From contig JAUCBJ010009037.1 in assembly GCA_032718475.1 (NCBI GenBank), positions 15,644-79,643 of the forward strand: a DNA stretch of 64,000 bases. Reading direction: 5' to 3'. The notes under the pieces are model-generated. The model worked only from the letters and a program-made list of their open reading frames with translations. It was not told the origin of the DNA and searched no databases. Shown here in pieces: positions 6,184 to 56,272 of the stretch (positions are counted from its first letter, which is position 1; each line of letters opens with the position of its first letter). The position numbers were made by a program, and so were the translations under genes. Source of the stretch: Nemertoderma westbladi (lineage: Eukaryota > Animalia > Xenacoelomorpha).

Positions 6184-7366
6184 TGTTCGCGCTTTCAGAC
6201 CTTTAGCAGTTTAACCTGCCAATTTTAGGTGTCCTCTTGTTTATAAATCGACTTTAGCCTATAACAATTATTTAATGCACATGAAGTAACATTAGCCGAA
6301 GCCAGTCTATGCGCGATCATTCACCCACAGTTAAGGGAGACTGGATTCGGATGCTTTGACCTTATTGCGGTGTAGACCTACTGTATTATTCGATTGATCA
6401 CTACTATATAATCTCTGACAATATTATTCACTTTCGGGGAAATATTAACAGTTCCTTTAGGACGTGGCACTTTAAGTATAAAACAGAGTTATGACTTATA
6501 CTAAACACAATGGGATGGCTACTGATTTTCGTAAATAGCGCATTCTTTAGGAGATGCTTTATTATCTGTCACACTGCTGCATACGATTTCACACTGCTGC
6601 ACACTGATCTGCCAACCGTCACTGAATTTGATCATATATAAGGAGGATAGCAACTGACACATGTAGGGATTATGAAATAGCATTTAATGCACACTAAAAC
6701 CACTGTAATATAAGTCGCAATTGCTACCGGCAACCGGTCCCTCTAACCTTTAGTAATCAAGAAGATTGGGGGTTTTATGATTATTTATCGATATTCTCCC
6801 AATATAACAACATATCCATCAACATATAACATTAATAACAGACAGTAAACAGAAGTACAATAATGCGGTGATATTCAGCCAGTATCGGTAGTACCGGTAC
6901 CGCAGTTACAGGTGCAGTATCAAAGTTGTTCAGTCAGTGCAGACTGCAGATAATAGATTTACGTTCTTATAATCAAGGCCGTCTAATGTTGGCCAAAGTC
7001 TGAAACTTATACCGAAGTACAGAAGAATCCTAAGCCGGTGTTCTGGGCTGTTTGGTGTTTGATACACACTAACTGAATTGCGTGGGTTTCTGTAGGCACT
7101 GTCCAACACAAGTGAAAATCGCTCTGATTGGCCGATCAGAACAAAGAACAAAGAAAAGCTCCACGCTGGCAGCAAATCAGCTGACAGATTTCTGAAACTA
7201 CACTCTATTTAGAGTATTTGGCGTATTGCGGCATAAAATGGCTTGTTATGTCCGCTAAAACACCTACAGGGTACATTGCGGAGAAAATAGCTTGTTATGT
7301 CCGCTAAAACAACTAAACAGTTAATTGCGGAGAAAATGACTGGTTATATCCGCAAAAGCTTTTACA
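6184..7366 (-). mobile_element. Second solo LTR of the same group, opposite orientation
   Basis: TGTTCGCGC...GCTTTTACA on the plus strand; 5-bp TSD CCGGT at 6179-6183 and 7367-7371. Confidence 0.9.
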
Positions 7367-37530: not shown

Positions 37531-38803
37531 TGTACGCGCTTTTGAAGACCTTTAGCAGTTTAACCTGCCAAAATTTATATGTCTTTTGGTTTATAGATAT
37601 ACTTTAGAAGATGACAAATATTTAATACCAATAAACACAACATTAGCAGAAGCCAGCCTAGTGCGCGTCCATTCACCCGCTGGATAATCCCGGGAGACTG
37701 GATTCTGAGGGCTTAAATTATTATTGCAGTGAAGCTTACTGTATTGTATTATTCGATTGATCGTTAATAATTAATTTCTGACTAATATTATTTACTTTCG
37801 GGAAATATTAACAGTTCCTTTAGGACGTGGCGCTCTATTTAAATAGACAGAGATATGACTTATACTAATCACAACGGTAAGTCAGTAAGGCTTAAGATTC
37901 ACGTATGAGGCGCATTCTTTAGGAAATGCTTAGTTATCAATCACAATCATGCACACTACCGGTAACACACAATACTGCTCACTAATTTGCCGACCGTCAA
38001 TGAATTTTATCATATATAAAGCGAACAGCAATTGACTCATGTAGGGCTTATCAAATAGCATTAAATTCACTACAAACCACAACAATATAAGTCGCAATCG
38101 CTATATATAACCCGTCTCTCTAACCTGTAGTGTATCAAGAAAATTGGGAAATTTGGGTTCTTTATATATGTTCTCCAAATAATATTCAACCAAACACAAA
38201 AGTAAATGGCAGTATAATAATGTATATTGAACCGATAATACAAGAATAGAAACAAGTTGATATAAATTGATATATGATGTATTATGAATTGATAACAGTC
38301 ATACGCTCTATAATTTAAGCCTACTAATGTTTCTTCTAAAAGTATGAAACGAATTGATTCTAGAGCCGTTGTTCCTGGCCTAGACAGCAATAACAACAAA
38401 GTATCAAGAAAAAACAGTAAGACTGAACACTCTCCTTATGATCGACCGAAAAGCTACACGTCGACAGGAAAAATTGCTCTGATTGGTTCAAGCCAAACAA
38501 AGAACCATGCGTCCAATGGCTGTTTCCATGTCAGCAACCAGCTGTTAGATGTCGTAATATGAATCATCACGGCTAAGCTATGAAAGGTATTTGTCGCATT
38601 GCAGGTTTTTTGCCTTACCATGTCCGCTAAAACATGTATATAGCAGAATGACTTTTATGTCCGTTAAAACACCTGTAAAGGTACCTTGCGGGCGAGGGGA
38701 ATATATATACAGTTAGAGAACCCTTTTTAGAGTATTCCAGCGCCTGGGGGGAAACTGGATTGCGAAGCAAAAGGGCCAGTTATATCCCACAGAAGCTTTT
38801 ACA
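37531..38803 (-). repeat. 3' LTR (1273 bp)
   Basis: Nearly identical to 54994-56272; only a handful of differences seen by eye. Confidence 0.97.
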
Positions 38804-38811
38804 CCGCTCCC
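38804..38811 (-). other. Short polypurine tract
   Basis: GGGAGCGG on the minus strand abutting the 3' LTR. Confidence 0.7.
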
Positions 38812-38881
38812 AGAAAATGGGATTTGAGTCTATACAATATACAAAATCACAGTTTCTAATATACGTAAATACTCTAAACAG

Positions 38882-41800
38882 TTAGTCTTTCTTGCGCGGA
38901 CGGCGTTTACGCAGTTTTTTAAAGCTAGCCAGAGTCCTTTTCTCTTTGGGGCGAGCCACTTTACAAGGAGGGCTATAACTCCTGGGTGAAGGGTACAATA
39001 TGATTGCATCAGAGGGTGTAGGATTATGGTCGGTGTATCCGCCAGTCGAAGTACCGGGTTGATTGACATCAACGTCAGGTGAGAGGGGTCTAACGGCTTT
39101 GAGAGCTCGTTTCAAGACAGCCGCTCTTACGGGTCCTTTACGAGTGGTCTGAACGAGGGCCGTGGGTGGACCATAGGCAGTTAGAAACTTCCGGGGTTTA
39201 ATGGTCCTTTCCAACTCGCGTTCGCGGGCTCGGTATTCGTAAGGCCGTCGATGTACTTCCTGCAACTCGGGGTGTGAGTTAACAAACAAGTCTCCATAGT
39301 CCGGATCCTGACGGATATAATTGATTAAGTTATAGGAATGAAGGTCGCTATGATTAACACTCCTGAGAAATTTGCGTACGAATTTAGTTGAAATACATTC
39401 TCCGACGCGCTTCAGTAGCTCGTAACTTGATATGCGTGATTTCTGTTCAACAGAAGCGAATAGATAAGGATGGAACGCATAAACTCCTTCGTAAGCGCGT
39501 CCGGGATAATAGCGATGGCGCGAATCACAATGTAAATCAGCGTTCGCTTCCCAAGCTCTGATGTAACGCAGTGTGATCATTTCATCTACGCTTTCCAAAT
39601 CGTGATTAAAAGGGCAGTCGAAACTAGCATGTCCCTTTAGTTGACAATGGTGACATTGAGTCATAAATTGAGGGCAAACCGCAAAGATATGCAGGTTATT
39701 GAGTCTGCAATATGCGCAATAAATTTCCATAGTCGGTTGTTCTTGGAAATAGGAACAGCGGACGTTGGTGTCCATGGGCGTATCGTGGTCTCTCGATGCG
39801 CATAACCGACAACGTTGCCTAGAAACATAGTTGGCATGGCGATAATCGTACGCAGTGAGACACTGTGGGCCTTGATACCATTCTATGATGTAATCGTTGT
39901 CGCTGGTCCGGGGCGCGATAGGCTGAATCTCTTCAGATTCTAGACATATTGGTTCGTCTTCCAAGTGCATAGCTGAAGTGGGCGTGTCTGTCTCTTCAGG
40001 TGGACCTATCGTCTGAATTTCCACGACAGAATAACCTGTGGGAATTCGAGGTCTTTGTATAACTGAGGAGTGCAAGTTCGATATACAAATCTCTTGGAAA
40101 ATGGCGAATCCAGCGCTATCCAACTTCTCTGCAGCTGAGTTTCTTAGGCTGAGTTTGGTCAAAGCGCGGTCTTTAAATTGGCTATCCACGTTGCGGAACG
40201 GGGTTAAAAATCTCCGGAAACATTCGAAATGGATGAATTTATTATGTTCATCTAGCTTAGCGAGTTTGGTCCCAAGTATTAATGGATGGGCGCGTATAGT
40301 ACGACTGCACACATCAGCTAGCCAACCGGCAAGTGCGGTGTTTTCAAAGATCGTGTATATAGCTAACGAGGGACGGAGTGGAACACTCATGAAGCTATAC
40401 ACGGCGCCAGGTGCGGTCAATGGTCCATCAAAGTATAATCGAGAATAATGGTCTCCGTATACCTGTTGATAGTTAATGGGATTTCCGACTTTGAAATTCC
40501 ATCCGTATTCCTGAAAGGCAAGATGTCCGATGGAAGTTCGTTGCACCTTGGTAATGTTGCTAGACGTATTAGCATACATGGTGCGGAAGAAACCTCGACC
40601 TTCTGCCCAAGGAGCAATCAGCTGAGTATCAACGAAAGGGTATGGAATGTCCTCCATATTCCGAAAGTTGTTTTGTAGATCTCCATAAACAGCTGAGCCG
40701 ATTTTAAGGATTCTTTCATTGAACAACATCTCGAGTACGGGCTGGGGTAACATCGATCCATCGATGCCCATGGCCGGTTTGCGTTCGGTGTCAATGACGT
40801 AACGCTGCGCGAGTTCGAATTGTCCATGTCGGAGATTCTTTTGTGTTTCGGTAAGAGTTTCAAAAGAATAATCAATCAAGTCGGAACACGCTCGAGTAAA
40901 CACGTGGGTAGAACCAGCTAATCCGCGGATGTGGATCATGCGCGTAGTTCCTAGCTCTCCGACCGGAACGCTACCTTCATTATCGTAGGTGACAACTCCA
41001 TACATCTCAATAACATTAAGAGTTTCATTCCACTCCTTGGTGGCGTTTTCTAGGGTCATCCCTACTGGATGCCACAAAGTGGCGCATTGGTTAGCGTCAG
41101 GGAGATCACTATACTTCATATGCCGAGTGGTATATGTCTCCACATTTCCATATCTTTGTATTTTCTCTTCTTCAAATAATACATCTAGATTCCAATGGAC
41201 TAATCGAGTTTTAATAAATCCATCGAGGTTATAAGGAGGTTCTATATCTTTCTCGATTCGAGAAATGTTATATGGTTTTCTAAATGAGTTAATGTCTAGA
41301 GGATTTATTAGTGGTAGAAACTTTAAATCATGTGTCGGGTCTTCTGGTTTTACCATATAATATTGAGTCAGATTAACGTAATAAGGGTGGTCTTTAATCC
41401 CGTAAAACGAGTTCTGTAAGGGTCTAGCGCGTATGTTGACATCGTGTACCATACGACGGACAAGATCCGCTCGATTGTCCGGAGGTTCAACGAGTATACC
41501 GTCAACACGAGCGGCCTCGATCGGCGGACGCTGTAACATAGGGGCGTCAGCGATAAGGTTTTGCGATCCTGTACTGATATCAACCGGTTGAGGTTGTATC
41601 GTCGCGAAGAGTTTGTCTCCGAAATGTGGAATCATAGAGGGATGACGAACGGTTTTAGAGTAGAGGTCCGTCATGAGGATTTGAGCTTCAGGTTGGGCTA
41701 AAGCGGCTTCTTCTCTTTCTTCCAGTTTCGTGTGTTTCTCTTCGATTAGATTTTCTTCCGCTTGTCTCTGTAAGCATTCATCTAAAAATTCTTGTAGAGA

Positions 41801-43087
41801 ATACGTGCGTCCAAGCTCGATGTCTTCCTCGAGGTTTTGAATTTCTCTATCGAACTGTGGCAAGGCTAACTCCTTCACCGATTGGACTTGTTGTTGTAAT
41901 TTACGTTTCTCTAAACAATCTTGTGTTCCCTTTCCGATTTTCTGTCGAATGGCGTCTAAAGCGTTTCTTATAACGCTCTCCTCGACTTCCGTGGCGGGTT
42001 GTATCGGGTTTAATCCTGGACGATTGTAAGGATCAAAGGGTAATATTAGCTGCCCGCGTCCCAATCCGGCTAAGTAGGATGGGCGGATGTCTAACGAACC
42101 CACTACCGGAGCACCACCGATTAATTGTTCGGGTAACACTAAGTCTTTGAACAGGGAATATAGTTCGGGAGGATCAGTGATACTGTTAGGATCAAGAGTT
42201 TGAGGTCTCACGAGGGAATGAGGAGGCCTGACCGAGTATTCCGGAACTCTGATCATGGGTTTATTCAGTGATCGTTTAAGACGAGCGATCGTGGGTGGTA
42301 CGTCGAACAGGTTTCGCTCGAAACTCCCGTAAGTGTAACGCGTAAAACTATGTTTAGCGCAACGTCTCCGCGGATGTTTATGTCTTTCAATTTGTTGGTT
42401 GGGTCTAGGGCATTCGTCGCAATAATACCAAAGACGCACGTCCTGTAGAGGAAACGCGGGTGATCGTTCTCCAGTTTTGCAGTATTCTTCCATTTGTTCA
42501 AAACTATCCGGGATAACAGGTAGTGGACGATCGGCAGTAAGATACATCATAGTGAAATAGAGCCGTTTGAGTTCTACTACAGGGTCGTGATGGATACCTT
42601 GAGGATATCGAGTCTCTAAGTTCTGCTGACTAGCGACGTTGAGATAGGTTTCTCTCAAAAACTCTAAGTATTCGTTGAAGTCGATGCGTTTATCCGGTTC
42701 TTCAACGTTTTCTCTTTCCAGTCTATTACGAATAGAATTTTCGTGATCTATTCTCGGTTTATCGTTACGACTCCGCTGGGTATGATATTTAAATAGAACC
42801 ATTTCCCTTTCTGTATCTACATCGTCCGTATCATGTAAATCGATAGGATGGCCGGTCATTAGGAAGTCCATATACGTACCATTACGATTCGTATAGCGAG
42901 TGGTGAATTTTCGATAGTCCAATTCACGCGCAAGTTGCTCTTGGGACATCGGCGGTTCGATATAACGACCATCGTCCTCCGTAATGGTTGGATCGGCTTC
43001 ACCGCGTATTAAGCTATCCACAAATGCTTGTAAAGGTAGAGTATATCGCTCCCTAATACCAAGATCATCTTCTATTAACTCCGTCAT
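38882..43087 (-). CDS. ORF3, 1401 aa: DEDDy/RNase D-like 3'-5' exonuclease domain, CCHC zinc knuckles, basic C-terminus
   Basis: ExoI VVTYDNEG; ExoII LPQPVLEMLFNERILKIGSAVYGDL; FVDTQ; ExoIII-like PLRPSLAIYTIFE; CAYC..H..C and CHHCQLKGHASFDC; no obvious signal peptide or TM segment. Confidence 0.8.
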   Translation of the reverse strand: MTELIEDDLGIRERYTLPLQAFVDSLIRGEADPTITEDDGRYIEPPMSQEQLARELDYRKFTTRYTNRNGTYMDFLMTGHPIDLHDTDDVDTEREMVLFKYHTQRSRNDKPRIDHENSIRNRLERENVEEPDKRIDFNEYLEFLRETYLNVASQQNLETRYPQGIHHDPVVELKRLYFTMMYLTADRPLPVIPDSFEQMEEYCKTGERSPAFPLQDVRLWYYCDECPRPNQQIERHKHPRRRCAKHSFTRYTYGSFERNLFDVPPTIARLKRSLNKPMIRVPEYSVRPPHSLVRPQTLDPNSITDPPELYSLFKDLVLPEQLIGGAPVVGSLDIRPSYLAGLGRGQLILPFDPYNRPGLNPIQPATEVEESVIRNALDAIRQKIGKGTQDCLEKRKLQQQVQSVKELALPQFDREIQNLEEDIELGRTYSLQEFLDECLQRQAEENLIEEKHTKLEEREEAALAQPEAQILMTDLYSKTVRHPSMIPHFGDKLFATIQPQPVDISTGSQNLIADAPMLQRPPIEAARVDGILVEPPDNRADLVRRMVHDVNIRARPLQNSFYGIKDHPYYVNLTQYYMVKPEDPTHDLKFLPLINPLDINSFRKPYNISRIEKDIEPPYNLDGFIKTRLVHWNLDVLFEEEKIQRYGNVETYTTRHMKYSDLPDANQCATLWHPVGMTLENATKEWNETLNVIEMYGVVTYDNEGSVPVGELGTTRMIHIRGLAGSTHVFTRACSDLIDYSFETLTETQKNLRHGQFELAQRYVIDTERKPAMGIDGSMLPQPVLEMLFNERILKIGSAVYGDLQNNFRNMEDIPYPFVDTQLIAPWAEGRGFFRTMYANTSSNITKVQRTSIGHLAFQEYGWNFKVGNPINYQQVYGDHYSRLYFDGPLTAPGAVYSFMSVPLRPSLAIYTIFENTALAGWLADVCSRTIRAHPLILGTKLAKLDEHNKFIHFECFRRFLTPFRNVDSQFKDRALTKLSLRNSAAEKLDSAGFAIFQEICISNLHSSVIQRPRIPTGYSVVEIQTIGPPEETDTPTSAMHLEDEPICLESEEIQPIAPRTSDNDYIIEWYQGPQCLTAYDYRHANYVSRQRCRLCASRDHDTPMDTNVRCSYFQEQPTMEIYCAYCRLNNLHIFAVCPQFMTQCHHCQLKGHASFDCPFNHDLESVDEMITLRYIRAWEANADLHCDSRHRYYPGRAYEGVYAFHPYLFASVEQKSRISSYELLKRVGECISTKFVRKFLRSVNHSDLHSYNLINYIRQDPDYGDLFVNSHPELQEVHRRPYEYRARERELERTIKPRKFLTAYGPPTALVQTTRKGPVRAAVLKRALKAVRPLSPDVDVNQPGTSTGGYTDHNPTPSDAIILYPSPRSYSPPCKVARPKEKRTLASFKKLRKRRPRKKD

Positions 43088-44705
43088 ATCTGCTATCTGA
43101 GTTTATTAATATCAAATAAGTTTGTATTTAGGCGAGCGGGCGTCGCTGCCTACTTTCTTTGCCCCCGGACAGTGGGATTCTCAGCGCCGATGTACCGTCG
43201 TCGCGGTGTTTACGCCAACATGTAGCAACAGCACGACAACGATAACCGGCACAAGTCACTCCACTGTCCGTCCCAAAGGCTTGGATCCACTTAGGTTCTT
43301 TCTATAGGAGAGTTGGGCTATTTTTACAATTGCGACTAGCTACTGTAAACATACTTTAGCAGTAACATTCACCTATAAACGCACAAATTCCACACAACTG
43401 TCAACAACTGCACACACACAGGCCATTTGTCCGTTAGTCAGTGCCTTCCAGAATGTCACTTTATTACTGTGTATCCTTGGATACTAACAGTGTGCTATAT
43501 TCTATGCTATGCAATGGGACAAGCTTTCTATTGTTCTTTTAACTTGCTTCTAATTCTAGCGTGGGTGTTGCTATGGTGACATTATGGAATGCTAGCGGTA
43601 GAATTAGAGTAATTCTCATGCATACAGATCTGGGATGCTATTTAATAATAATTCTTTAATTGTCAATATCCTCTTTATGCATGATTTTGTTAATTTTATC
43701 GGCTATTGACTATATGTTGGAGATTCTCGCACTCTAATACACTCAATAGGATGAATCTCCGCTCCCATGATCTATTAATTAATGGAATTTTGGGAATGTT
43801 ATAAATTGTACAAAATGACAATTTATGAAATTCATTTAAAATATGAATTTAAATTTATTCCCGTGAATTTTATTATTTGATGTTAAAATTGACACAATTT
43901 GATTCCAGAGCAGGTCTGGGGACATAGGATCTTTAATTCTATAAAATTGTCTTTTAAGAGTATCGGTAAGTGCTGCGATATCTTAATTGACTAGAAATTT
44001 TAAAGGATCTGAATTTTACAGAATTTAATAAATATTAAATTAATATTTAAGATGGGCACCGATTTATTCCAGAACTTGTCTGGGGACGTTAACCACTGAT
44101 TCTAGAATTGGTCTTTCAAGTATATCGGTGGGTGCCGCGATATCTTAATCGACTAGAATTACAGATGGTCAAAAGGTTTAACAGATTTATTTGCGTTTTA
44201 CGCTACTGTTATAGGGACATCACGCTACTATATGTATTATTATATATGGTATGAGAGCAATATCGCACGAAGCAATGTCAGTGTGAAGAGGCAAGTCGTT
44301 TCCAAGGTCTACCCAGAGCTTGGCTTAGCCGAGACACGAGGATCTGAACTTTGCATTCCTAATACTCTGCCTACCAATAATACTTGAATATAGTAGTGGC
44401 TTTATTGTACTTTAAGAAGTACGGACATTTCATCTTACTGTAGTCACGTATTTATAATATGATACGGACAGTAAGGAAAGAGAAAATAATTATTTTCTCG
44501 CCGTCGCACTAAATATATATTATAAGTAATTACGTACGTAATAAACACTAATATATTGCACTAATCTACTAAATAATCACTAAAATAACATTCTACTAAA
44601 TAAAATTGAATAAAAACGATTATAATAAAGTACATAATAAAGTTCACATATAAAAATATAACAAAATAGATAAAATAATATAGTCATACACCCACTCCAG
44701 ACGTA

Positions 44706-47516
44706 TCACGTTAGGGAGTCCCTAGATGTTTGAGGAATTAGGGAGGTGGTCGTGGGAAGAGTGTCTTGCCTTCCATAGTTTCCAGAGAGTTCCCTGTCTC
44801 TTTCCAGTAAACATAAACGACCAACTGGGCGATTGAGTTGTTGCGTCTCAAAGATGATGCCTGGTTTCTTGAAGTTACGCCGCATGACGATGAGTTCTAC
44901 TGAGCGTACTAAACCATCATCTGAAATGTGTGTCTCGATGATACGACCTGTCTGCCACCGTTTACGTGGGAGGTCTGGATCTACAATAAGCACCATATCT
45001 CCGGTGCTGACGTTTTCTTGCTGCGCAAACCACTTAGTTCGAAGTTGTAGCGTGGACAGATAATGTTTCTCGAAATGGTCAGCGAAACGACGGGATAGCA
45101 ACTGCATAAGTTGCCAAGTTCGACGGCAGTATTCGTCTCCGTCGGCAATCTCCGATCGTGGGAGCATGGCTACGGGTTTCTTCAGTAGGAAGTGCGCGGG
45201 TGTTAGCGCTTCCAGGGAATCGGGACTCGATGAGACTGGCATAAGCGGTCTCTCGTTGAGATAGGCAGCGATTTCCTCCATTAACGTCCGCAAAAGTTCG
45301 TCGGTGAGATACGCGCGGCATGGCACTATAAAGTGAAATGCGGTTTTGACACTTCGAATTAATCTCTCCCAACTTCCTCCCCACCAAGGGGCGTCGGCAG
45401 CGTTGAAGGTCCAGCTAGACGCTGTTATCCTTAGCTGGTCGTCCACCTGTCTTTGGTTCCAGTCCTTCACGTAAGCCTGTATCTCGTTGTTGGCACCTAT
45501 GAAGTTCGTTCCTTTATCCGATCTCATGGTATTACTCGTCCCGAAGCGAGCGATCTGTCGTCGTAAACTTAAGACGAAGCTGTTAGTAGATAGATCGTTC
45601 ACCATATCGAGATGGATGGCTCTACAAGTCATGTACACGAAGATGACACACCATCTCTTGACTATAGTCCTCGCACGATATACTTCAATAGGGCCAAATA
45701 AATCTACACCAGTATTAGTAAAAGGTGGTTCATAGAAGCTTACTCGTTCCCTAGGTAATTCTGCCTCTCGCTGTGTTAAAGGCCTACTGAATGCTTTCCT
45801 ACAGGGTATGCAGTTCCTAAGAACTTGGTTCAGAGCTCTACGGGGTTTATCAAAATAATAGCGAGTTCGAATTTCGCTAAGAATTCGTTCTCTACCAGCA
45901 TGGTAAAGTTTACCGTGAACGTCTACAATCATCTTGATTTGTACTTCAAGATTTCTAATAAGTATGGGGAATTTGGTGTCAAAGGATAAGGGCGCGTTGG
46001 TGAGTCTTCCTCCAACACGTATTAACCCATCTATCATTGTGCTCGAGAATCGATCCCTTAAGCGCATCTGTGGATTTCTCAACAACAGGAAGTACTTTTC
46101 GGAATCCTCATAGCATTGCAGGAGTCTCAGTATCTGTTTATTTGTTTCTTCATACTCCTGGTGACTAATTTTCTCTTTTAGAAAACGATCAGATATCTTA
46201 TATTTGGGTAAATTCTTAATAACATGAACTTGTGCAGATGTCAATGGAGCGTGATCACTAGTGGTCTTCGTCCTGGAGTAGTGATGATGAAAACATCGTC
46301 TTAAAAATGTGACGGCTTTACAGAGCCGATTCCAGGAACTGTAATGATGCATTGCTCTCTGCAGCATGGGTGAGATTCCTTGCGAGACGTCTGGTATTCC
46401 AGATTTCCAATCTCTATCTCGAATTTCCACAACAGACTTATTTGTGTTGAGGGATTGTGGATCCGAAACATCATTCCCGGAAGTGTGTAATACGGATAGA
46501 TCGATAGTCGGTTTAAATAACTTTGATTTACTCGCCCGGGTTTTAGGTTTGACGGTCTCCGCTCCCTTGGCTTGTCTAATCTCTGCCGTAGTAAGGTGAG
46601 GAGGCCATTCATCCTCTTCCTTGCTCAGGAAGTCGGGTCCACCCAACCAATCTGGAGTATCTATCAGTTCCTGTGGAGTTGCTCCCCTGGAGGCGATATC
46701 GGCTGGATTAATCGTACCAGGGCAATGTCTCCATTGATCTATCTTTGTGCGACTAAGAATAATAGCTACTCGGTTAGTAACAAAAACGCTAAACTGACAG
46801 ACTTCATTGGTGAGATACTCCAACACGAGTAAAGCGTCGGTCCAATAAACCGTTTTCTCCAGTGGATAGTCGATTTGTTCCGTTACGTTCCGGCCGATGG
46901 CTGTAGCGTATAAAGCCGCCTTTAACTCCGCTCGAGGAACCTTTAACTTGTTGTTAATCAATGCCTTAGAGGTAACCAAGGCGACCTTGATTCCATCCGG
47001 AGTTTCGACTCGCAGATATGCTACTATACCTATTCCCATATCGCTGGCGTCTCCAAACACATGGAGTTGATAGGAATACGTAGGAAGAACATGGCCAAAA
47101 TATGCACGGGAAATTATAAAGTTCTCGATGGCAGGTAGAGAATCTTCCCATTTCATCCATTTCTTCAACAATTCTCCCTTAAGCGGATCGTCCCATGAGT
47201 GGTTTTCAAGCCACATCTGTTGTACTAAACTCCGAGCAATCAATATAACTGGGCTAATAAATCCCAATGGGTCGAAATAAGTGCTCAGGATACTTAAACA
47301 AATCCGCTTGGTCCGAACTGGATTATCTCGCTGTTTTAACTGAAAAAACAGGATGTCTCTTTCAGTGTCCCACTTCAAGCCTAGCGTTTTGGTTTCAGGA
47401 AGATCGTCCTTTATTAAGTCTAGGTCTTTCGCTCCGCGATCTTCTACCGGTATGGCTACCAGAAACTCACGGGAGTTGCTAGTGAATTTCGTCAGTCGAA
47501 ATCCACCTCTTTTCAA
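44706..47516 (-). CDS. BEL/Pao pol C-terminal part (RT thumb, RNase H, integrase); in frame with the upstream ORF after one TGA
   Basis: GGFRLTKFTSN, LHVFGDAS, ELKAAL, NPADIASRG, H..HAG..CIPC, GVDLFGP, SDKGTNF, WERL, LQLRTKW. Confidence 0.93.
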   Translation of the reverse strand: MKRGGFRLTKFTSNSREFLVAIPVEDRGAKDLDLIKDDLPETKTLGLKWDTERDILFFQLKQRDNPVRTKRICLSILSTYFDPLGFISPVILIARSLVQQMWLENHSWDDPLKGELLKKWMKWEDSLPAIENFIISRAYFGHVLPTYSYQLHVFGDASDMGIGIVAYLRVETPDGIKVALVTSKALINNKLKVPRAELKAALYATAIGRNVTEQIDYPLEKTVYWTDALLVLEYLTNEVCQFSVFVTNRVAIILSRTKIDQWRHCPGTINPADIASRGATPQELIDTPDWLGGPDFLSKEEDEWPPHLTTAEIRQAKGAETVKPKTRASKSKLFKPTIDLSVLHTSGNDVSDPQSLNTNKSVVEIRDRDWKSGIPDVSQGISPMLQRAMHHYSSWNRLCKAVTFLRRCFHHHYSRTKTTSDHAPLTSAQVHVIKNLPKYKISDRFLKEKISHQEYEETNKQILRLLQCYEDSEKYFLLLRNPQMRLRDRFSSTMIDGLIRVGGRLTNAPLSFDTKFPILIRNLEVQIKMIVDVHGKLYHAGRERILSEIRTRYYFDKPRRALNQVLRNCIPCRKAFSRPLTQREAELPRERVSFYEPPFTNTGVDLFGPIEVYRARTIVKRWCVIFVYMTCRAIHLDMVNDLSTNSFVLSLRRQIARFGTSNTMRSDKGTNFIGANNEIQAYVKDWNQRQVDDQLRITASSWTFNAADAPWWGGSWERLIRSVKTAFHFIVPCRAYLTDELLRTLMEEIAAYLNERPLMPVSSSPDSLEALTPAHFLLKKPVAMLPRSEIADGDEYCRRTWQLMQLLSRRFADHFEKHYLSTLQLRTKWFAQQENVSTGDMVLIVDPDLPRKRWQTGRIIETHISDDGLVRSVELIVMRRNFKKPGIIFETQQLNRPVGRLCLLERDRELSGNYGRQDTLPTTTSLIPQTSRDSLT

Positions 47517-50500
47517 TCACTCTACCGTTCCTTTCGCGACAGCTATGGCTTCTTCTACTGATGAAAGGGACCTTAAATTGTCGTCCATGTATATATTGCG
47601 TTTTATGTTGTCCATCACTTCTTTGGAGAAGGAGTCTCGGTTATCATTCGCAGTGGTTCGCACCACGGAGCAGGCGTTGGAAGGGCTTGATATGATCCCA
47701 AAAGCCTGGATGGTCATCCAGTACTCTACCGGTTTCTGGTTGAGGTCTCCTTCAGGCCACCACAGAAATCTCAGGCTGTCTCTATCTCTATCCAGCGCCT
47801 TGACTTGTAAGAACATTCCTTCGATATCAGAGGCGAACGCGATGGAATATTGTCTTAATCTTAATAGTATTCCCAACAAAGATTGGAGTAAGTTGGGTCC
47901 TGGTAACAACTCGGAATTGAGGGATTGGCCCATATATAGCGCAGAGCCATTAAATACGACTCGTACTTCATGGGGTTTACCGGGTTTGGGAACGTAATGA
48001 TGTGTTAAATAATACGTTCTCTCAGTCACTGGTGTTCCTTCCGGTACTCGCTCCGCGTATCCCTTTGTTATAAATTTCTTCAGCTGAGTTTGGTACATTT
48101 CTTTCGCTGAAGCATTAGCTGTAAGTCGTCGATATAATTGAGCGATTCTTTTCTCTGCCAAGGGTCTGTTATTTATAAATCTAGGTTCTCGTTTTCGAAA
48201 TGGTAGGCCGATTTCATACCTACCTTGGTCCTTTAAAAAACGTGTAGTTGTTTCCTGGATTTGCTTGGCTCTTTCTTCTTCTATCGATAGAGCCTTATCA
48301 TATGAATTGGGCTCTACCAGTTCCTGAGTAAAGAATCGTACAGCTAGTTCGTCCCGAGTTCTAGCGTTGCAGCGCTCTATCTCATCGTTTAGTTCGTCAT
48401 TGTAAGCGATGGGTTCCGATGGGTGAATCAGTTGACATAGGTTCACCTGACTTTTCCAATTTTGGTTTTCTGTAAGTAGGTCGATTGTGTTCTCTTCATC
48501 GAAGAGTTGGTAGATGTCGTCATTATCTGAGGAGTATGGTGTTCCCTCAGTTAGTTCGTCCACCTCACTGCTCTCCACTTCCCAATCGTGTACTTGGTAT
48601 GTGTGTTCTTGTGGCATTCTCTCTTCGAGAGTCCTGCGGGAAGGGCCAGTAAAGTACCAACCTACTCTAGTTCTTACTGCATAGGTTTGCAGTGGCTGTG
48701 GTTGAGCAGGCCGTTTCTCCAATGTTTCGAGCGCCTCATGCGCATTCTGGCCGATGAGGATTTGCACTCCAGGATAATCTGTCTGGAATCGAGGTATCTC
48801 AAGATGTTGGATGCTCTCATCCTCGTCCCAATTATAAAGGTCTGCTTGAGTAGTAGCGAAGTTCTTTATAGCCACCATTTTTACCGACCTTATACCTTGT
48901 GTTCCTAACTTATCCTGGGGGGTGGACAACACACCTACATAGTAATCTGCCGTTAAGGTAGATTTCCAAACCTGCATAATTCCTGACATATTCAATTTAG
49001 TCCAGAATTTGGGTTGTCCAGCAAAGATATCTTCGGCTAATTCTTGATCGATGAATGTTCCTGTGCTGCCGGAGTCAAGGAGGGCGTTCACTATGTAACT
49101 TTTGTTAAGACCGTGAACTCTTACCTGTACTACAGGAAATTCTCTGATTCCTACGTTGGAAGTTGGAGCTTTCCAAGATGGTTGTTTGGCAAAAGTAGTT
49201 GGGGGAAACTCATTGTTGGTGTCCTTTTCATAAGTAAGTGCTCGATACACTGCGGTATTGATTAGATAACAGGATTCGTTGGCGTCGGAGAATTCGTCAG
49301 TATAGAATCCTTCCATCTCAGACTCCTGATCAGTGTCGTTTACATCACTGAATTGGACATGTAGTTCGGGCTCACTTACCTGACTCTGTTTGTCTCGTTC
49401 GAACTCACTGTGTAACAAGATGTGATGTTTCGCGCCACACTTTGCACACTTTATGTCGGAGTAACAGGTTCGCCGTTGGTGTCCTGGTCTGAGGCAATTA
49501 TAGCATAACCGCTTGTCCCACACAACTGCACGTCTGTCTACAAGGGATTTCTTTAGAAATTCAGCACACGCACTCAAACGGTGGGTCTCGTCGCACAGCG
49601 CACAGTTAGGTTTTATGTTACTCACCTTACCTTGGGTAACTTGATGCACTCTCGTTTTTTCTTCGGGTTTTCTTCGGTGCATTCTGTTAGGAGACTGAGG
49701 GGGGGTCTTGGTAACCCGTTCTCTCCTATCGTTGTTTCGAGCCTTGTATTTACTTACATCTTTTGAGGTTTTGTCAACGTAGTAAGATCGCTCAGTATCT
49801 TTCCCGCTGTCCTCTTCTTGAGAAACTTGGCTTTCGCCGTCGTCAGTGTAACACACCGGTGTTATTCTTCTCCTAGAAGCGGGTTTCTCACTTACCTTAT
49901 TTTCCGATGTTTTCTCTCTGGACTGCTTGATGAGTTGTAGTTTTACCTCACCATCTAAGAAGGACATGAGATCAGCCATGGTAGGACTTCGTCGTTGTTG
50001 TTCATTCATGTACAACACTTTCTTGTCCCAGCGAGTACATACTCCACCCTTTGGTAAAGTAGAGACTACGGCTCCAATAACCATTGAACTCTGATATTCA
50101 TGAGACTTACCTAACCAGTCCAATTGTCTACAGATCTCTTGAATCTCATCGGGAAACTCTATAATCCCGCTACTAAGGAAGTGTCGGGGGGCTACTAATT
50201 TTGCATACAAATACTTAGCTATGTTATCCTTGTTACCATACCTGATGTTTAATGTATCCCATACTTGTCTTAATCCTTCTGGATGTCCAAAAAACTTTAA
50301 CGCCATTAACTTGGGAGGTCCTTCCAAGCACTTGATGAGAAACCTAAGTTTCTCTCCATTAGATAGCACAGAGTTCTGTATGCTGTCTTTGTAATATTCG
50401 TTGAAAGGTAACCATTTCATCTCATCTCCATTGAATTTGACGATCTCTCCCACTTTGACCGCTTGGCGGGCTTCTGTTCTAGCCATCTGCCGCGTAAAGC

Positions 50501-52793
50501 TTTCTTGGGCCATCGTGTTATTTAATATCGAATTATCGGTATATAAATTTCTCGGATCATTATCAGGTCTATAGGGAATATCATTAATAACAGGTCTATA
50601 ATCACCCTTAATAGGGTTTGCTATAGGAGTTTCTACTTCACTAGCAGTATAGATGCGTGTAGGCTCCACACCTTGCGCATGTAATACTTCAGACCTAACA
50701 GGTTGACACAATGTTACAGGGGGTATTGGTATTCCCTTTTGTATATTGACTAATTTGTCGCGTTCTAGCGCGATACTTTGCTGCACTTCTTGCAATTCGG
50801 CCCTACTTTCCCTTACTGTTCCCTTAAGCTGGTGGACAGTCTCCTGCATCTGTCCGAGCAGGAGATTCATCCCCCGCCGTCCCTCCTCTACCCACTCGAC
50901 CGCCGAAGCGGGAGTCGCCAACATAGTAGCGGGCTGACGCGGGATGACGGGAGACAAATCTTTGATTTCTCTCTCAGCTTCCAGGACAGGGATATTCTCA
51001 TGGACTGTTCTACTGGGTACAGGCAGTGTAGTACTGTGTAAAGGGAATTTAGAGTGAAGCTCTGGAAGTACAGGGGTCTCTAACACAGAAGTGACTTTGG
51101 GAACGACAGGCCTAATTATTTCAGGCTCATCAACTATTGTAGGGAGCCTTTTGACCTGAATAGTTTGGTAGGTGGGTTCCGTACTCGCTAAGTCTGTGCT
51201 AGCTAGTTGTCTTCTAACAGCTGGGGGCAAATCAGGCAATTTGTGACGATGAGATGTTTTTCTACGCCTGCTTAGACGAGATCTATTTCCTCCGCCTTCA
51301 GGATCGGTGGTTTCACTTTCTTCCGATGATGTGTATCCCTGACGTTTGGGAGTAGATTTTCTCATCATCTGCATGTGACTAGCAGTTAACTGTTTATTTA
51401 TGTTGTCTTGCGTCTCTTGCAGATTTTCCAACTCCAGTTGGGTAGTCTGCTCAGACGCTCTCCGTTCTGCTTCTGCCACTGCCCTTTCCGCCTTTGCTTC
51501 TGCCGCCGCTGCCTTTCTTTTTGCTTCTGCTTCTGCCGCTGCTGCCTTTCTTTCTGCTTCTACTTCTGCCGCCGCTGCTTTTCTTTCTGCTTCTGCTTCT
51601 GCCGTAGCCACCGCCTTTTGTTCCTCTATCCGTCTTTTCTTTACTTTTTCTTCTTGGACTCTAGCGACGCGGAGTTTTTCATCAAATTCTGCTTGGTTAG
51701 CAGCTAACATTTCAGCATCGATTGAATCTAACACACGCTGGGTTCCTTCACTGTTGGGGGAAAGTCCAGACAGCCGTCTCCTCAACTCTTCGTCTCCTAG
51801 GAATCGCTGATAGTCGGACTGATAAATGTCTATGGCATCTCTCATTCGTGGTTTCTCTGAGGTCTCTTCGCCTTCCACTTGAGAAAGGGTGGCATCGGTT
51901 GGTTCTTCATAAGTTAGTCTCTCAGACAGCTGGGATTTCCACTGGTCTGTTTCTTGGATTTGGAGACCTACCTGCTGGAACCAAGTTTTGACAGCAACCT
52001 GCAGCGACGTGTCCTGTCTTCTTTTGGAAGTTTCCTCAAAAGCTGATAGGATTAGTCGAATGCGTAGGGTTCTTTCGCGTACTTGATATAGCAGTTCTTC
52101 CTGCTCTTGAGGTCCTTGGGGTTGTCGAAACAGTTGTTCTTCTAATCTCTCTAAGGAGCCGAAGAATCCCTGCACATATCCTGCTGCCGACCTCTTCCAA
52201 ACAGCTGGATCCATCGTATCTTTAGCCACTCCCATCCTGTGTATATCTTCCCAAGTAGCCTCGGACAGATCTAACGGGAGTCCGGGTCCGGGAAAGTTCC
52301 ATTGTGACTCGACAATCGACATCAATTCTTCCCTGGCGTATCCCGCATAATCATCTTGGGTCGCTCGCTTATTTCTCGCCCAATCTGCTTGATGTTCCTC
52401 CACCGCAATCGATATAGTTGTTAGCACTGCGGCAGGAAGGGTGAGAAGGGGGTCCGAGTAGGCTTTAGCCGTCATCTGCAATCCGCGTTCGGGGGTCAGT
52501 TCGACAGTATCCGAACTACTGGAGCTATCGGATCGCTGGGAACAAATTTCTTGACTAGGCTGTTGCTGTTGTGGGACAGCTGCTTCCTGGTTCCGTTTGA
52601 CTTGGGCCCGAGTGCCGATGATGGACCTACGGTGTTGGATTAGCTTAGGGTCCGATATCACTACTGGAGGGATGACTTTTCTTTCAGTAGGAGGTGAGCT
52701 GAACTCCTTTCTTAAACGCTCCACACTCCTATCTGTGTCACAGATGGTTGTATCGATTAGACTGTCTGACAGGTTTTGCTGAGTGTCAGACAT
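47517..52793 (-). CDS. BEL/Pao gag, protease and RT N-terminal part
   Basis: Gag core KFNGDEMKWLPF..EKLRFL; knuckles CALCDETH, CYNCLRPGH, CAKCGAKHHILLH; protease ALLDSGS; RT RVVFNGS, PGPNL, DIEGMF, YMDD. Confidence 0.95.
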   Translation of the reverse strand: MSDTQQNLSDSLIDTTICDTDRSVERLRKEFSSPPTERKVIPPVVISDPKLIQHRRSIIGTRAQVKRNQEAAVPQQQQPSQEICSQRSDSSSSSDTVELTPERGLQMTAKAYSDPLLTLPAAVLTTISIAVEEHQADWARNKRATQDDYAGYAREELMSIVESQWNFPGPGLPLDLSEATWEDIHRMGVAKDTMDPAVWKRSAAGYVQGFFGSLERLEEQLFRQPQGPQEQEELLYQVRERTLRIRLILSAFEETSKRRQDTSLQVAVKTWFQQVGLQIQETDQWKSQLSERLTYEEPTDATLSQVEGEETSEKPRMRDAIDIYQSDYQRFLGDEELRRRLSGLSPNSEGTQRVLDSIDAEMLAANQAEFDEKLRVARVQEEKVKKRRIEEQKAVATAEAEAERKAAAAEVEAERKAAAAEAEAKRKAAAAEAKAERAVAEAERRASEQTTQLELENLQETQDNINKQLTASHMQMMRKSTPKRQGYTSSEESETTDPEGGGNRSRLSRRRKTSHRHKLPDLPPAVRRQLASTDLASTEPTYQTIQVKRLPTIVDEPEIIRPVVPKVTSVLETPVLPELHSKFPLHSTTLPVPSRTVHENIPVLEAEREIKDLSPVIPRQPATMLATPASAVEWVEEGRRGMNLLLGQMQETVHQLKGTVRESRAELQEVQQSIALERDKLVNIQKGIPIPPVTLCQPVRSEVLHAQGVEPTRIYTASEVETPIANPIKGDYRPVINDIPYRPDNDPRNLYTDNSILNNTMAQESFTRQMARTEARQAVKVGEIVKFNGDEMKWLPFNEYYKDSIQNSVLSNGEKLRFLIKCLEGPPKLMALKFFGHPEGLRQVWDTLNIRYGNKDNIAKYLYAKLVAPRHFLSSGIIEFPDEIQEICRQLDWLGKSHEYQSSMVIGAVVSTLPKGGVCTRWDKKVLYMNEQQRRSPTMADLMSFLDGEVKLQLIKQSREKTSENKVSEKPASRRRITPVCYTDDGESQVSQEEDSGKDTERSYYVDKTSKDVSKYKARNNDRRERVTKTPPQSPNRMHRRKPEEKTRVHQVTQGKVSNIKPNCALCDETHRLSACAEFLKKSLVDRRAVVWDKRLCYNCLRPGHQRRTCYSDIKCAKCGAKHHILLHSEFERDKQSQVSEPELHVQFSDVNDTDQESEMEGFYTDEFSDANESCYLINTAVYRALTYEKDTNNEFPPTTFAKQPSWKAPTSNVGIREFPVVQVRVHGLNKSYIVNALLDSGSTGTFIDQELAEDIFAGQPKFWTKLNMSGIMQVWKSTLTADYYVGVLSTPQDKLGTQGIRSVKMVAIKNFATTQADLYNWDEDESIQHLEIPRFQTDYPGVQILIGQNAHEALETLEKRPAQPQPLQTYAVRTRVGWYFTGPSRRTLEERMPQEHTYQVHDWEVESSEVDELTEGTPYSSDNDDIYQLFDEENTIDLLTENQNWKSQVNLCQLIHPSEPIAYNDELNDEIERCNARTRDELAVRFFTQELVEPNSYDKALSIEEERAKQIQETTTRFLKDQGRYEIGLPFRKREPRFINNRPLAEKRIAQLYRRLTANASAKEMYQTQLKKFITKGYAERVPEGTPVTERTYYLTHHYVPKPGKPHEVRVVFNGSALYMGQSLNSELLPGPNLLQSLLGILLRLRQYSIAFASDIEGMFLQVKALDRDRDSLRFLWWPEGDLNQKPVEYWMTIQAFGIISSPSNACSVVRTTANDNRDSFSKEVMDNIKRNIYMDDNLRSLSSVEEAIAVAKGTVE

Positions 52794-54136
52794 GTTTAGC
52801 TATACAGTTGAATGCCTACTGCTATAGTTACAGTTAAAGCAAGTCTAGTAATTCAGTATGACCGTTGGCCTAGTACCGGTAATTTATTGCAGTATATTAG
52901 AATACCGATATGCACTTATAATATATATATAAGTATTGTAAACTAGGTTTGTCACAGAGTACCGGTATATAAATTTAGCACAAATACATATAAATATATA
53001 ATAGGCCTATCGTGAATACCGGTATACAGCTTACACTTATAGTATATATAAGTATAATTATGAACTAGAATTATTACAGAATACCGGTATGATTTCAGCT
53101 CGAATTTATAGAATAAATATAATAAACCTATGGTAAATACCGGTATGTCAATTATTTTTATAATAATTGAATTTCTGAATATTTAGGGTTACTTGGTTAC
53201 TTTAACTTACTTTGTTACCGTTATTTAAGCAGTAGTCCAACTGATTTTGAGACCTAGTTGTTGTATGGCAGGCCTACTATTTATAAATCGTTTGAGTTGA
53301 TTTATAATAGATATATACCCTTTTAAAAATGGGTTTTGTCAATATTTGAAATAAATGTTATTATTTCTGGGGAAAGTCACTACACAGAAGCTGTGCGCTC
53401 TCAGTGAAGTGCTATTTATTTGACACTAAAACTGATAATTCTAATTTACCTAAGTTACTTAATACTACAAATTGCTTACGATACGGGTGAGATTAATTCT
53501 CTAATTAAACACAACAAAAATTATTACGTACGAATTTTTAGGGTAATTTTACAGGAAGTCTACAAACCAGTCTAACAAAGGGTTAGAATTCGGTTTATTA
53601 CAACGGACAGGGTACTACGGTATTTGAAAATAATAAGTAGTAGTAAATATATTGCACTGTCCAGATAGGAAAATACCACCGCCTGACGACCTATAACCGT
53701 ATCGCTATAGGTACTACGTTATGTATCACGGAGTGTTCCTACCTAGAAGTTAATTACCGCGGACTACCAGATCCAGCGTGCCTATTAACCACTTTACAAC
53801 ACAAATATACTGCCTACACACTAATTACTTTCGGAAAGCACTGTACACTAAACCCTAAATTAGGTACAAGCACTGGTACAACAAATAATCAGTAGTTAAA
53901 TATACTTGAACAGTTAAAAGAACCACGGCATCTGCTGGAGTGACCAGAGCACAAAGTCACCAGTCTTGTCCTACGCCAAGCAGCCCGTGTAGTACCGGGG
54001 TTAATTTAACTATAACGGTATGTATAACAAGCACAATTACTGTATGAATAAACTTGGGGACATGAATGTTGCGAATAATCGCATAAACTCTGAATAATAA
54101 ATATTACGCTACCCGTACAGGATACTCAAACAAAAT

Positions 54137-54670
54137 ACAGACCAAATGCTGGCAGACTACTACCAAGCCTAAATAAACTACTGTATGTGCAGATTCCAAA
54201 ACGGTTAGTTAGTATGCGTTCTAACACGGTAGTACGACTTATTCTTTAAGAGGGGATTGACCTTACAGTTATGACTGCCCCAACTTACTAACTGGCACTT
54301 TATCAGACAAACTCTACATAAGCAGCAATCTCTTCAGACCTAATAACAGCTAGACAACAATCCAGCCTACAACATATCTGAGTAATAACTATTACGGTAC
54401 CTGAACAGACCACACAAACAAGCACAGGCCAAAACGCTGGCAGAACACTGTCAAGCCTAAATAAACTACAGTATGTGCAGATTCCAAAATTGTTAGTTAG
54501 TATGCGTTCTAACACGGTAGTACGACTTATTCTTTAAGAGGGGATTGACCTTACAGCAATGGCTGCCCCAACTTACTAACTGGCACTCTATCGGACAAAC
54601 TCCACACACGCCGTAATCTCTCCAAACCCAACAACAATCTGACAACAGTCCGGCCTACAATTATCTGAAC
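54137..54670. repeat. About 287-bp-period tandem duplication in the retrotransposon 5' leader
   Basis: Two copies with an identical core GTTAGTTAGTATGCGTTCTAACACGG...GACCTTACAG. Confidence 0.9.
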
Positions 54671-54982
54671 AATCTGAGCAGACTTACACGTCTTCAGCTC
54701 AATATTAACTTACATGTAAATAAAACCGACAGAAATAAGTAAAATCTCAATAAAAACCAGGGCGGCCGTCCCTGATTAAATACTAAGACCTACCGGTATA
54801 CTATAATCAAAATCGAATAATACTAATGTACTTATACTGGAAGTACCGGTTAGGACAGTTGGGCCTACGGACCTACAGAAGTACCGGTTCTGGCAGTTGG
54901 ACCTACGGACCTACAGCAGTACCGGTTCAGGTTTACCGGTTGACCGGTACTTTCAACTTTATTGCTTACTGCAATAAAGTCA

Positions 54983-54993
54983 ATGACTGTTAT
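54983..54993 (-). other. Non-tRNA primer-binding site ATAACAGTCAT (self-priming type)
   Basis: Abuts the 5' LTR, lacks TGG, and is the exact complement of LTR positions 55757-55767. Confidence 0.75.
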
Positions 54994-56272
54994 TGTACGC
55001 GCTTTTGAAGACCTTTAGCAGTTTAACCTGCCAAAATTTATATGTCTTTTGGTTTATAGATTTACTTTAGAAGATGACAAATATTTAATACCAATAAACA
55101 CAACATTAGCAGAAGCCAGCCTAGTGCGCGTCCATTCACCCGCTGGATAATCCCGGGAGACTGGATTCTGAGGGCTTAAATTATTATTGCAGTGAAGCTT
55201 ACTGTATTGTATTATTCGATTGATCGTTAATAATTAATTTCTGACTAATATTATTTTTACTTTCGGGAAATATTAACAGTTCCTTTAGGACGTGGCGCTC
55301 TATTTAAATAGACAGAGATATGACTTATACTAATCACAACGGTAAGTCAGTAAGGCTTAAGATTCACGTATGAGGCGCATTCTTTAGGAAATGCTTAGTT
55401 ATCAATCACAATCATGCACACTACCGGTAACACACAATACTGCTCACTAATTTGCCGACCGTCAATGAATTTTATCATATATAAAGCGAACAGCAATTGA
55501 CTCATGTAGGGCTTATCAAATAGCATTAAATTCACTACAAACCACAACAATATAAGTCGCAATCGCTATATATAACCCGTCTCTCTAACCTGTAGTGTAT
55601 CAAGAAAATTGGGAAATTTGGGTTCTTTATATATGTTCTCCAAATAATATTCAACCAAACACAAAAGTAAATGGCAGTATAATAATGTATATTGAACCGA
55701 TAATACAAGAATAGAAACAAGTTGATATAAATTGATATATGATGTATTATGAATTGATAACAGTCATACGCTCTATGTATAATTTAAGCCTACTAATGTT
55801 TCTTCTAAAAGTATGAAACGAATTGATTCTAGAGCCGTTGTTCCTGGCCTAGACAGCAATAACAACAAAGTATCAAGAAAAAACAGTAAGACTGAACACT
55901 CTCCTTATGATCGACCGAAAAGCTACACGTCGACAGGAAAAATTGCTCTGATTGGTTCAAGCCAAACAAAGAACCATGCGTCCAATGGCTGTTTCCATGT
56001 CAGCAACCAGCTGTTAGATGTCGTAATATGAATCATCACGGCTAAGCTATGAAAGGTATTTGTCGCATTGCAGGTTTTTTGCCTTACCATGTCCGCTAAA
56101 ACATGTATATAGCAGAATGACTTTTATGTCCGTTAAAACACCTGTAAAGGTACCTTGCGGGTGAGGGGAATATATATACAGTTAGAGAACCCTTTTTAGA
56201 GTATTCCAGCGCCTGGGGGGAAACTGGATTGCGAAGCAAAAGGGCCAGTTATATCCCACAGAAGCTTTTACA
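54994..56272 (-). repeat. 5' LTR (1279 bp)
   Basis: TGTAAAAGC...GCGCGTACA on the minus strand; CCAATCAGAGC box shared with both solo LTRs. Confidence 0.97.

Follow-up and report, generated by a model that had tools for sequence, protein, structure and literature searches.

The window, i.e., the whole stretch of 64,000 nucleotides from Nemertoderma westbladi analysed here, harbors on its minus strand an LTR retrotransposon of 18,742 bp (37531..56272), flanked by a 5-bp target-site duplication (TSD, CAGGT). The 5' LTR (56272-54994, TG...CA) and the 3' LTR (38803-37531) are 1279 and 1273 nt long, respectively, and share 99.4% identity, being two substitutions and two small indels apart; this identity, together with the TG...CA ends and the 5-bp TSD, indicates a young insertion. 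The polypurine tract (PPT) GGGAGCGG (38804..38811, minus strand) immediately precedes the 3' LTR. The gag-pol gene (44706..52793, minus strand) is a single frame encoding three zinc knuckles, a DSG protease, a YMDD reverse transcriptase (RT), an RNase H and an integrase, and it is broken by one stop codon (47519-47517) within the RT region. The Pfam search retrieved DUF1759, Peptidase_A17, Integrase_H2C2 and DUF5641, with the order PR-RT-RH-IN, and no match to a chromodomain; PF05380 was present in 120 out of 120 homologues among the matches listed. The features of the BEL/Pao superfamily (TG...CA LTRs, a short TSD and a PPT) are all present. The best listed BEL/Pao protein relatives are 31-39% identical, and the element represents a long branch with at most 41% identity. 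By protein lineage, it belongs to the BEL/Pao superfamily, and the assignment made in the initial annotation is thus upheld by the Pfam domains, their order and the relatives.

Downstream of gag-pol, a third open reading frame (ORF3, 38882..43087, minus strand) codes for a protein of about 1400 residues, with a DEDDy 3'-5' exonuclease-like middle part (approximately residues 700-930) and C-terminal zinc knuckles (near residues 1100-1165). In Atlas, which compares language-model features, ORF3 scored 0.92 to PF01612 clusters, with 154 out of 256 features shared and 24 of the 30 hits belonging to PF01612; stretches resembling the ExoI-III motifs were recognized by eye only. The searches for a Pfam domain, a sequence homologue or a PDB match did not retrieve anything. 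ORF3 may therefore be a DEDDy exonuclease according to this model-based resemblance. A third ORF after pol, likely a DEDDy 3'-5' exonuclease, is described for the bdelloid gypsy-like elements Juno and Vesta in the passages of PMC5408684 dealing with them; ORF3 differs from it in its length of about 1400 residues with zinc knuckles and in that its assignment is a language-model look-alike only.

Within the leader (54993-52794, minus strand; 2.2 kb), 288 nt are duplicated (54089-54381 / 54377-54668); the other tandem repeats present there are shorter, and the word ACCGGT is frequent. Elsewhere in the window, two related LTR families are represented by solo copies, namely solo LTR A (6184..7366, minus strand, TSD ACCGG) and solo LTR B (4458..5701, plus strand, TSD CCATC); they are in opposite orientation, about 480 nt apart, and have hit the same LINE-like RT gene (window 4300-7500). 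The LTR of the element contains a sole ATTAAA, a candidate poly(A) signal (55084..55089, minus strand), which is kept in both solo LTRs. The window also embeds a tandem array of about 4 kb (26012-29995; 33-bp unit, 96% identical, frames open on both strands), a near-perfect palindrome of 322 bp (57374-57695) and three long single-exon host ORFs, i.e., a sorting nexin with SH3-PX-BAR organization (22021-23784, plus strand), a cytochrome P450 (34248-32629, minus strand) and a WSC-sulfotransferase (63989-62259, minus strand).

The primer-binding site (PBS) directly following the 5' LTR at offset 0, ATAACAGTCAT (54983..54993, minus strand), contains no TGG and is the exact complement of 55767-55757. 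Within the element, this complement occurs there and at 38302-38292 in the 3' LTR, and nowhere else; the exact match is 11 nt long, and the 3' end of the LTR segment lies 763 nt from the LTR end. The absence of TGG, the match and both its LTR copies are as the initial annotation had described them, and its loop of about 770 nt agrees with this measure. According to 20,000 dinucleotide shuffles of the LTR, an 11-nt match has a chance of 0.00075 at offset 0, the earlier rough estimate being about 1e-3, and of 0.0026 at offsets 0-5 (0.0008-0.003 being the range quoted overall); the chance rises to 0.017 under the wider rule applied to the relatives (at least 10 nt, contiguous or spliced). The previously noted hairpin after the PBS is real: it spans 54953..54983 (minus strand; 13 bp including G.U pairs), with a 10-bp Watson-Crick core at 54980-54956. 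In the local fold (z -3.7), the PBS next to it stays single-stranded. No tRNA gene was found within the 64-kb window. The element has no tRNA-type PBS, and its priming is likely tRNA-independent. The explanation that we favor, and consider reasonably probable, is that it primes with an internal segment of R, 55767-55757 (the predicted self-primer, 55757..55767, minus strand), a segment whose complement is found both in the PBS and in a guide that co-evolves with it within the LTR. A scan of many windows regularly meets events of 0.001-0.017, so that a chance match in an A+T-rich LTR has to be weighed; nevertheless, the trait is found in 24 relatives, a covarying guide targets exactly the same segment and the variation profile of the PBS matches it (see below), which makes a coincidence very improbable.

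A primer built by splicing was considered for this element and rejected, the partner being contiguous and no intron with consensus sites giving a match to the PBS; among all the GT-AG pairs of the LTR, one non-consensus donor, absent from both solo LTRs, yields 10 nt at the PBS. Moreover, an intron at 55769-55028 (a donor-like GT two bases before the 11-mer and an acceptor-like CAG/GTT at 55027), resembling those of the relatives, was ruled out because the junction has no 10-nt match in the leader, the solo LTRs lack the +5 G and the conserved ATTAAA would be removed.

We then checked the PBS of distant relatives in 98 BEL/Pao loci from metagenome and metagenome-assembled genome (MAG) contigs, and in another 14 regions belonging to two of the same genomes. 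A self-complementary PBS, with letters other than those of the window element, was found in 24 of the 98 loci and a tRNA-type site in nine, with no firm call in 65. In 21 out of 98, a PBS of 10-14 nt located 0-5 nt after CA matches only a GT-AG exon junction inside the LTR (L001, L012, L013, L021, L027, L034, L039, L050, L058, L061, L070, L073, L074, L075, L079, L082, L084, L086, L094, L095 and L096), and the introns concerned carry canonical splice signals. Three loci (L004, L083 and L064) have a contiguous 11-nt partner and a fixed LTR end. The nine tRNA-type sites, with TGG and in part identified by eye, are those of L006, L008, L010, L026, L051, L057, L065, L085 and L088. Furthermore, six loci are contiguous candidates without a fixed LTR end, and L098 has a 12-nt match located 11 nt from the LTR end. 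For 58 loci there is no call, mostly since the contig lacks the whole LTR or leader; the hits in L033, L037, L053, L018 and L092, being weak or chance-looking, were not included among the junctions. Among the 14 further regions, L140 has an 11-nt junction and L136 one of 10/11, the rest being other elements or lacking two LTRs.

In an open scan (210 draws, 14 loci), the null frequency is 11%, 4.8% and 2.4% at 10, 11 and 12 nt, respectively, and the two 10-nt junction calls are therefore weak. In nine relatives, the LTR end is fixed by two copies; six of these have exact 11-nt self-pairings (null at most 0.7%), one has a tRNA-type site and two are near misses. Pairings between the PBS of one locus and the LTR of another reach 10 nt in just 5 out of 506 cases, two of them between L058 and L094, whose 11-mer is the same; one entry is mis-anchored. 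In L095 and L096, three letters are changed in the exon end and in the PBS alike. As for the position of the primer, a poly(A) signal lies at most 50 nt after it in 14 out of 19 relatives and 667 nt after it in the window element, a difference that counts against the favored explanation. A second internal partner of the primer is not a general trait, having been found in four of the 19 relatives at p at most 0.03 (L034, L058, L064 and L098), by a contiguous-helix test that is blind to a split guide. The U5 of L058 (p 0.01) and that of L064 (p 0.005) carry, at 68-94 nt from the LTR end, a second 10-bp complement of the primer, perhaps a simpler decoy.

The two LTRs of L064 (125-326 and 6692-7103) differ in that one copy has an intron acceptor and the other the precise spliced junction. 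This is likely an intron loss through reverse transcription, in copies that are 88% identical on a contig that is possibly chimeric. Moreover, L081-L098 are BEL/Pao elements located in GTDB bacterial MAGs and in a Wolbachia chromosome record, a placement that reflects either contamination by host DNA or insertion. None of the 98 loci harbors relatives of the window LTR or of ORF3 (blastn), the 21-nt LTR-end motif is absent from the viral and metagenome contigs searched, and no relative was found in viral contigs. The idea that ORF3 trims the primer is speculation because the relatives lack ORF3; the apparent extra ORFs of L001, L019, L055, L085 and L091 turned out to be permuted gag genes.

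In the phylogenetic tree (53 of 106 rows, SH-aLRT support only, midpoint root), 22 self-pairing loci fall inside a clade of 29 rows with a support of 94. L039, with a PBS matching a junction over 14 nt, is placed among the tRNA-type neighbours L006, L008 and L026, which implies at least two switches of priming mode. The window element, on its long branch, may group either with the tRNA-type L085 or with the self-pairing clade, in a fork just outside the latter, and this position counts against the favored explanation. The independent origin of self-priming proposed in the initial annotation holds with respect to Tf1, which belongs to another superfamily, but the trait is widespread in BEL/Pao; the placement is compatible with both a shared and a separate origin of self-priming in the window element and in the clade. 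In Caenorhabditis elegans, the BEL-class element Cer7 reportedly encodes the complement of its own PBS, as a tRNA-like sequence located in the internal region and not as a segment of the LTR; this primer-like sequence could lower the novelty of self-priming in BEL/Pao.

The site of transcription start decides whether the primer would be the 5' end of the RNA. A putative promoter (55890..55955, minus strand), identified by consensus match only, consists of a CCAAT box at 55955 and an initiator-like TCAGTC at 55895 (A at 55893), and 57-62 nt separate CCAAT from the initiator-like TCAGT in each of the three LTR families. The RNA would thus probably start near 55893, about 126 nt upstream of 55767, and the primer would then occupy positions +127 to +137, within R. 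A strict Tf1 style, with transcription starting at or beside 55767 and the first 11 nt acting as the primer, had been proposed initially. The length of 11 and the position of the PBS fit it, and in a thermodynamic fold the helix between primer and PBS has a probability of 0.2-1.0 when the RNA begins at 55767 and of 0 when it begins at 55893, a result that tells against the internal primer that we favor. On the other hand, none of the three families has a TATA box or initiator at a distance of 25-30 nt upstream of 55767, and the conserved CCAAT and initiator-like spacing lies about 120 nt further up. Furthermore, the pairing segment of the 21 junction relatives spans an exon junction, so that an unspliced RNA could not simply begin with it, and five relatives (L064, L084, L095, L096 and L027) have TATA boxes 120-240 nt upstream of the segment. 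The covarying helices described below also employ bases upstream of 55767; under a strict Tf1 style, only the 3' LTR copy, whose U3 is part of the transcript, would allow them to form. On the whole, self-priming stands as the likely mechanism, but a start at 55767, in which the RNA would prime with its opening 11 nt, is not supported, and we regard it as unlikely.

A comparison of the three LTR families revealed five perfect Watson-Crick helices of at least 6 bp that are kept in each of them, and the two richest in double changes both target the 11-mer segment. Guide arm Y (55398..55403, minus strand) pairs with 55761-55756 (6 bp, two columns changed on both sides), and guide arm X (55367..55373, minus strand) pairs with 55770-55764 (7 bp, three columns changed on both sides). 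The two helices are antiparallel and adjacent, with one or two invariant bases left unpaired between them, and the arms flank a conserved hairpin (55377..55394, minus strand; loop CUAAAG). All 13 pairs of the guide are kept in the three families, with five double changes, every variable substrate position (five) being compensated; in 25 block shuffles, no helix of at least 6 bp with two double changes was obtained. If partners are exchanged between families, the pairing loses 2-10 kcal/mol relative to the native combination. The PBS proposed initially as the partner of the 11-mer stands, but a second, covarying partner inside the LTR had been missed, and this internal guide likely masks the primer. 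The guide binds the 11-mer with -14.6 kcal/mol vs -12.6 to -13.6 kcal/mol for the PBS, which counts against the transfer to the PBS that the favored explanation entails.

The guide is embedded in a conserved, structured LTR domain of about 700 nt (55103..55799, minus strand), closed just before the poly(A) signal by the helix 55799-55793/55109-55103. Further helices are 55610-05/55241-36, 55566-60/55499-93, 55558-53/55327-22 (crossing) and 55164-58/55122-16 (all on the minus strand); several of them cross, and the domain is pseudoknotted. The identity to both solo LTRs is 71-76% over 55644-55100 vs 41-55% in 55960-55800 and 55755-55645. Beside the PBS, the helix 55131-55126/55002-54997 (minus strand) has one column changed on both sides, and a candidate 9-bp helix (55192-84/54977-69) was read from the sequence. 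Over ten helices, nine double changes in 63 pairs were counted, a number that none of the 500 shuffles or of the slid controls reached; this count is partly circular because the structure was derived from the same three sequences. RNAalifold gave a zero net covariation term on the 3' part alone. When run on 795,591 bases from 83 sources, the guide-core model retrieves the four LTRs of the window and nothing else, and the five matches in Rfam 15 (E 0.3-6.7) are all far under the gathering scores. The CTAAAG word (55387, 55288, 55070 and 55018, minus strand) occurs four or five times per LTR family, several times as a hairpin loop; protein-binding or packaging loops are possible.

The organization of this domain raises the question of its function. 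A tentative proposal, which we hold to be rather doubtful, is that the R domain is a functional RNA whose two co-evolving arms dock the primer and control or catalyse its release to the PBS, replacing the spliceosomal intron with which the relatives would build their primer. In a more specific version, which appears distinctly improbable to us, the domain is itself catalytic: the arms would dock the primer in the manner of exon-binding sites, and its 3' end would be made by the RNA, with or without the help of ORF3. In favor of this version are the size of about 700 nt with crossing helices, the covarying arms that flank a hairpin and leave one or two invariant substrate bases unpaired opposite to it, and the 3'-5' exonuclease-like ORF3. 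However, the domain is unmatched in Rfam and the hammerhead core is absent; the guide arms lie in the order opposite to that of EBS2/EBS1 in group II introns; a cut at the unpaired bases would destroy the primer, because they lie in the middle of the 11-mer; and the relatives prime without either the R domain or ORF3.

The variation of the PBS was analyzed in public reads, by comparing the contigs of four runs from three samples (X1, X2, X3 and X5) over 54945-55050. The PBS is variable at 7 out of 11 positions across four readings, none of which has TGG, while the LTR end and the leader hairpin are kept. Position 9 is unlike the window copy in 73%, 94% and 100% of the depth in X1, X2 and X3, respectively, and is uncovered in X5; the commonest reading, with this position changed, keeps only a G.U with the window 11-mer, which counts against the favored explanation. 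Two classes of loose ends were also found: the first, with positions 9-11 changed, in 13, 5 and 1 contigs of X1, X2 and X5, and the second, with positions 1, 5, 6, 8 and 9 changed and carrying the LTR end of the solo families, in 11, 5 and 5 contigs of X1, X2 and X3. The partners of PBS positions 1, 5, 8, 9 and 10 differ among the three LTR families of the window, and all five positions vary in the reads (overlap 5/5, P 0.045, or 0.013 without a wobble-compatible change). The exact complements of the solo A and solo B segments are absent from the four readings. The contigs are too short to phase the PBS with the 11-mer over 770 nt, and the solo LTRs carry no PBS; contig cover is low at 55669-55839, over the 11-mers, and the depth there was not used as evidence. 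Thus, concerning the covariation between PBS and 11-mer suggested as a check of the initial proposal, the variable positions coincide, which is an indirect indication from unphased data.

These data also bear on the possibility that the pairing is an RNA switch between guide and PBS, serving folding, packaging or translation, with priming by another host RNA, a tRNA fragment or a protein. The sole covariation directly shown in the window family is indeed that between 11-mer and guide and not between 11-mer and PBS, and half-tRNA priming is known in Ty1/copia lineages according to the relevant passages of PMC6317226. Nevertheless, judging from their letters, one tRNA segment, or any one RNA segment, cannot pair with all four PBS readings. 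Moreover, the PBS of the relatives differs in almost every family and yet fits its own LTR, cross-pairs of at least 10 nt being scarce; hence we judge a switch with priming from elsewhere to be improbable.

In principle, priming with the internal R segment, i.e., the explanation that we favor, could proceed as follows. The RNA would start near 55893, and within the folded R domain the guide would first bind and mask the 11-mer; the same would occur in the 3' copy of R, which no PBS follows. Inside the particle, the 11-mer would be handed to the PBS, kept open by the leader hairpin, and cleavage at the 3' border of the duplex, possibly by the RT/RNase H of the element in analogy with Tf1, would provide the 3'-OH; RNase H reportedly makes the Tf1 primer, as Levin is said to have described in 1996. 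A minus strong-stop DNA of about 760 nt would then copy U5 and the rest of R and jump to the 3' copy of R. The primer might derive from the 5' copy of R, from the 3' copy or from a short LTR transcript, and its copying during plus-strand synthesis would keep a drifting PBS and primer matched. In such a scheme, the role of the guide would be that of the LTR intron in the relatives, namely to withhold the primer until it is needed.

The comparison with known systems places the element close to Tf1 in function and apart from it in lineage. As in the window element, the PBS that follows the 5' LTR of Tf1/Tf2, Tj1, Tosmo and the Tf1/sushi group is complementary to LTR-derived RNA of the same element, according to the passages of PMC4600332 on this group. 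The Tf1 "pretzel" has side duplexes beside the PBS, three duplexes in all, as described in the corresponding part of PMC10085805, and one similar side helix, 55131-55126/55002-54997, covaries in the window element. However, Tf1/sushi elements are Ty3/gypsy chromoviruses with a chromodomain, unlike this BEL/Pao element; the Tf1 primer is the 5' end of the RNA, whereas the primer of the window element is predicted to be internal to R, with a 763-nt loop; and a competing second guide is not described for Tf1/sushi in the passages of PMC4600332 and PMC10085805 on priming. For Tcn1 (gypsy) and for TAR/Houba/Osr-1 (Ty1/copia, plants), self-priming was predicted in the part of PMC6317226 concerned with them from an LTR complement of the PBS of at least 10 nt, so that independent origins outside Tf1/sushi had already been proposed there. 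These elements belong to superfamilies other than BEL/Pao, and neither a splice-built primer nor an internal guide is described for them in that part of PMC6317226.

The ICTV description of Belpaoviridae/Semotivirus reports an 18-nt PBS complementary to the 3' end of tRNA-Arg or tRNA-Gly, genomes of 4.2-10 kb and LTRs of 0.2-1.2 kb (PMC8742986). The window element shares with the family the order Gag-PR-RT-RH-IN, DUF1759, Peptidase_A17, DUF5641, the LTRs and the PPT (PMC8742986); unlike it, it has no tRNA PBS, in this copy or in the variants read, and measures 18,742 bp with a 1279-nt LTR. The splice-junction loci (among L001-L140) belong to the same superfamily and have a self-complementary PBS of 10-14 nt located 0-5 nt after the LTR and a primer in R; in most of them an intron interrupts the primer and the poly(A) signal follows it after 0-50 nt, whereas the primer of the window element is contiguous, 667 nt before the signal and paired with a guide. 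Hence, the element functions like a self-primer outside Tf1/sushi and is BEL/Pao by protein, and it misfits the ICTV description in PBS and size. BEL/Pao self-priming and LTR-intron primers are unreported in the openly available literature searched; a term search of PMC3118150 and PMC554778 found neither PBS nor tRNA, and the relevant passages of PMC3601003 and PMC8220671 contain nothing on BEL/Pao priming.

What is new is the second, covarying LTR partner of the primer segment, i.e., the guide; the domain around it adds a candidate to the structured RNAs, one whose target is defined and covaries with it. If this explanation is true, a large part of BEL/Pao would prime with its own RNA, against the ICTV description of host-tRNA priming, and would do so by at least two designs, i.e., a primer spliced by the host and a ready-made primer held by an internal guide. 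BEL/Pao would be, in turn, the third LTR superfamily with self-priming, which would explain the missing PBS calls in the annotation of many BEL/Pao elements.
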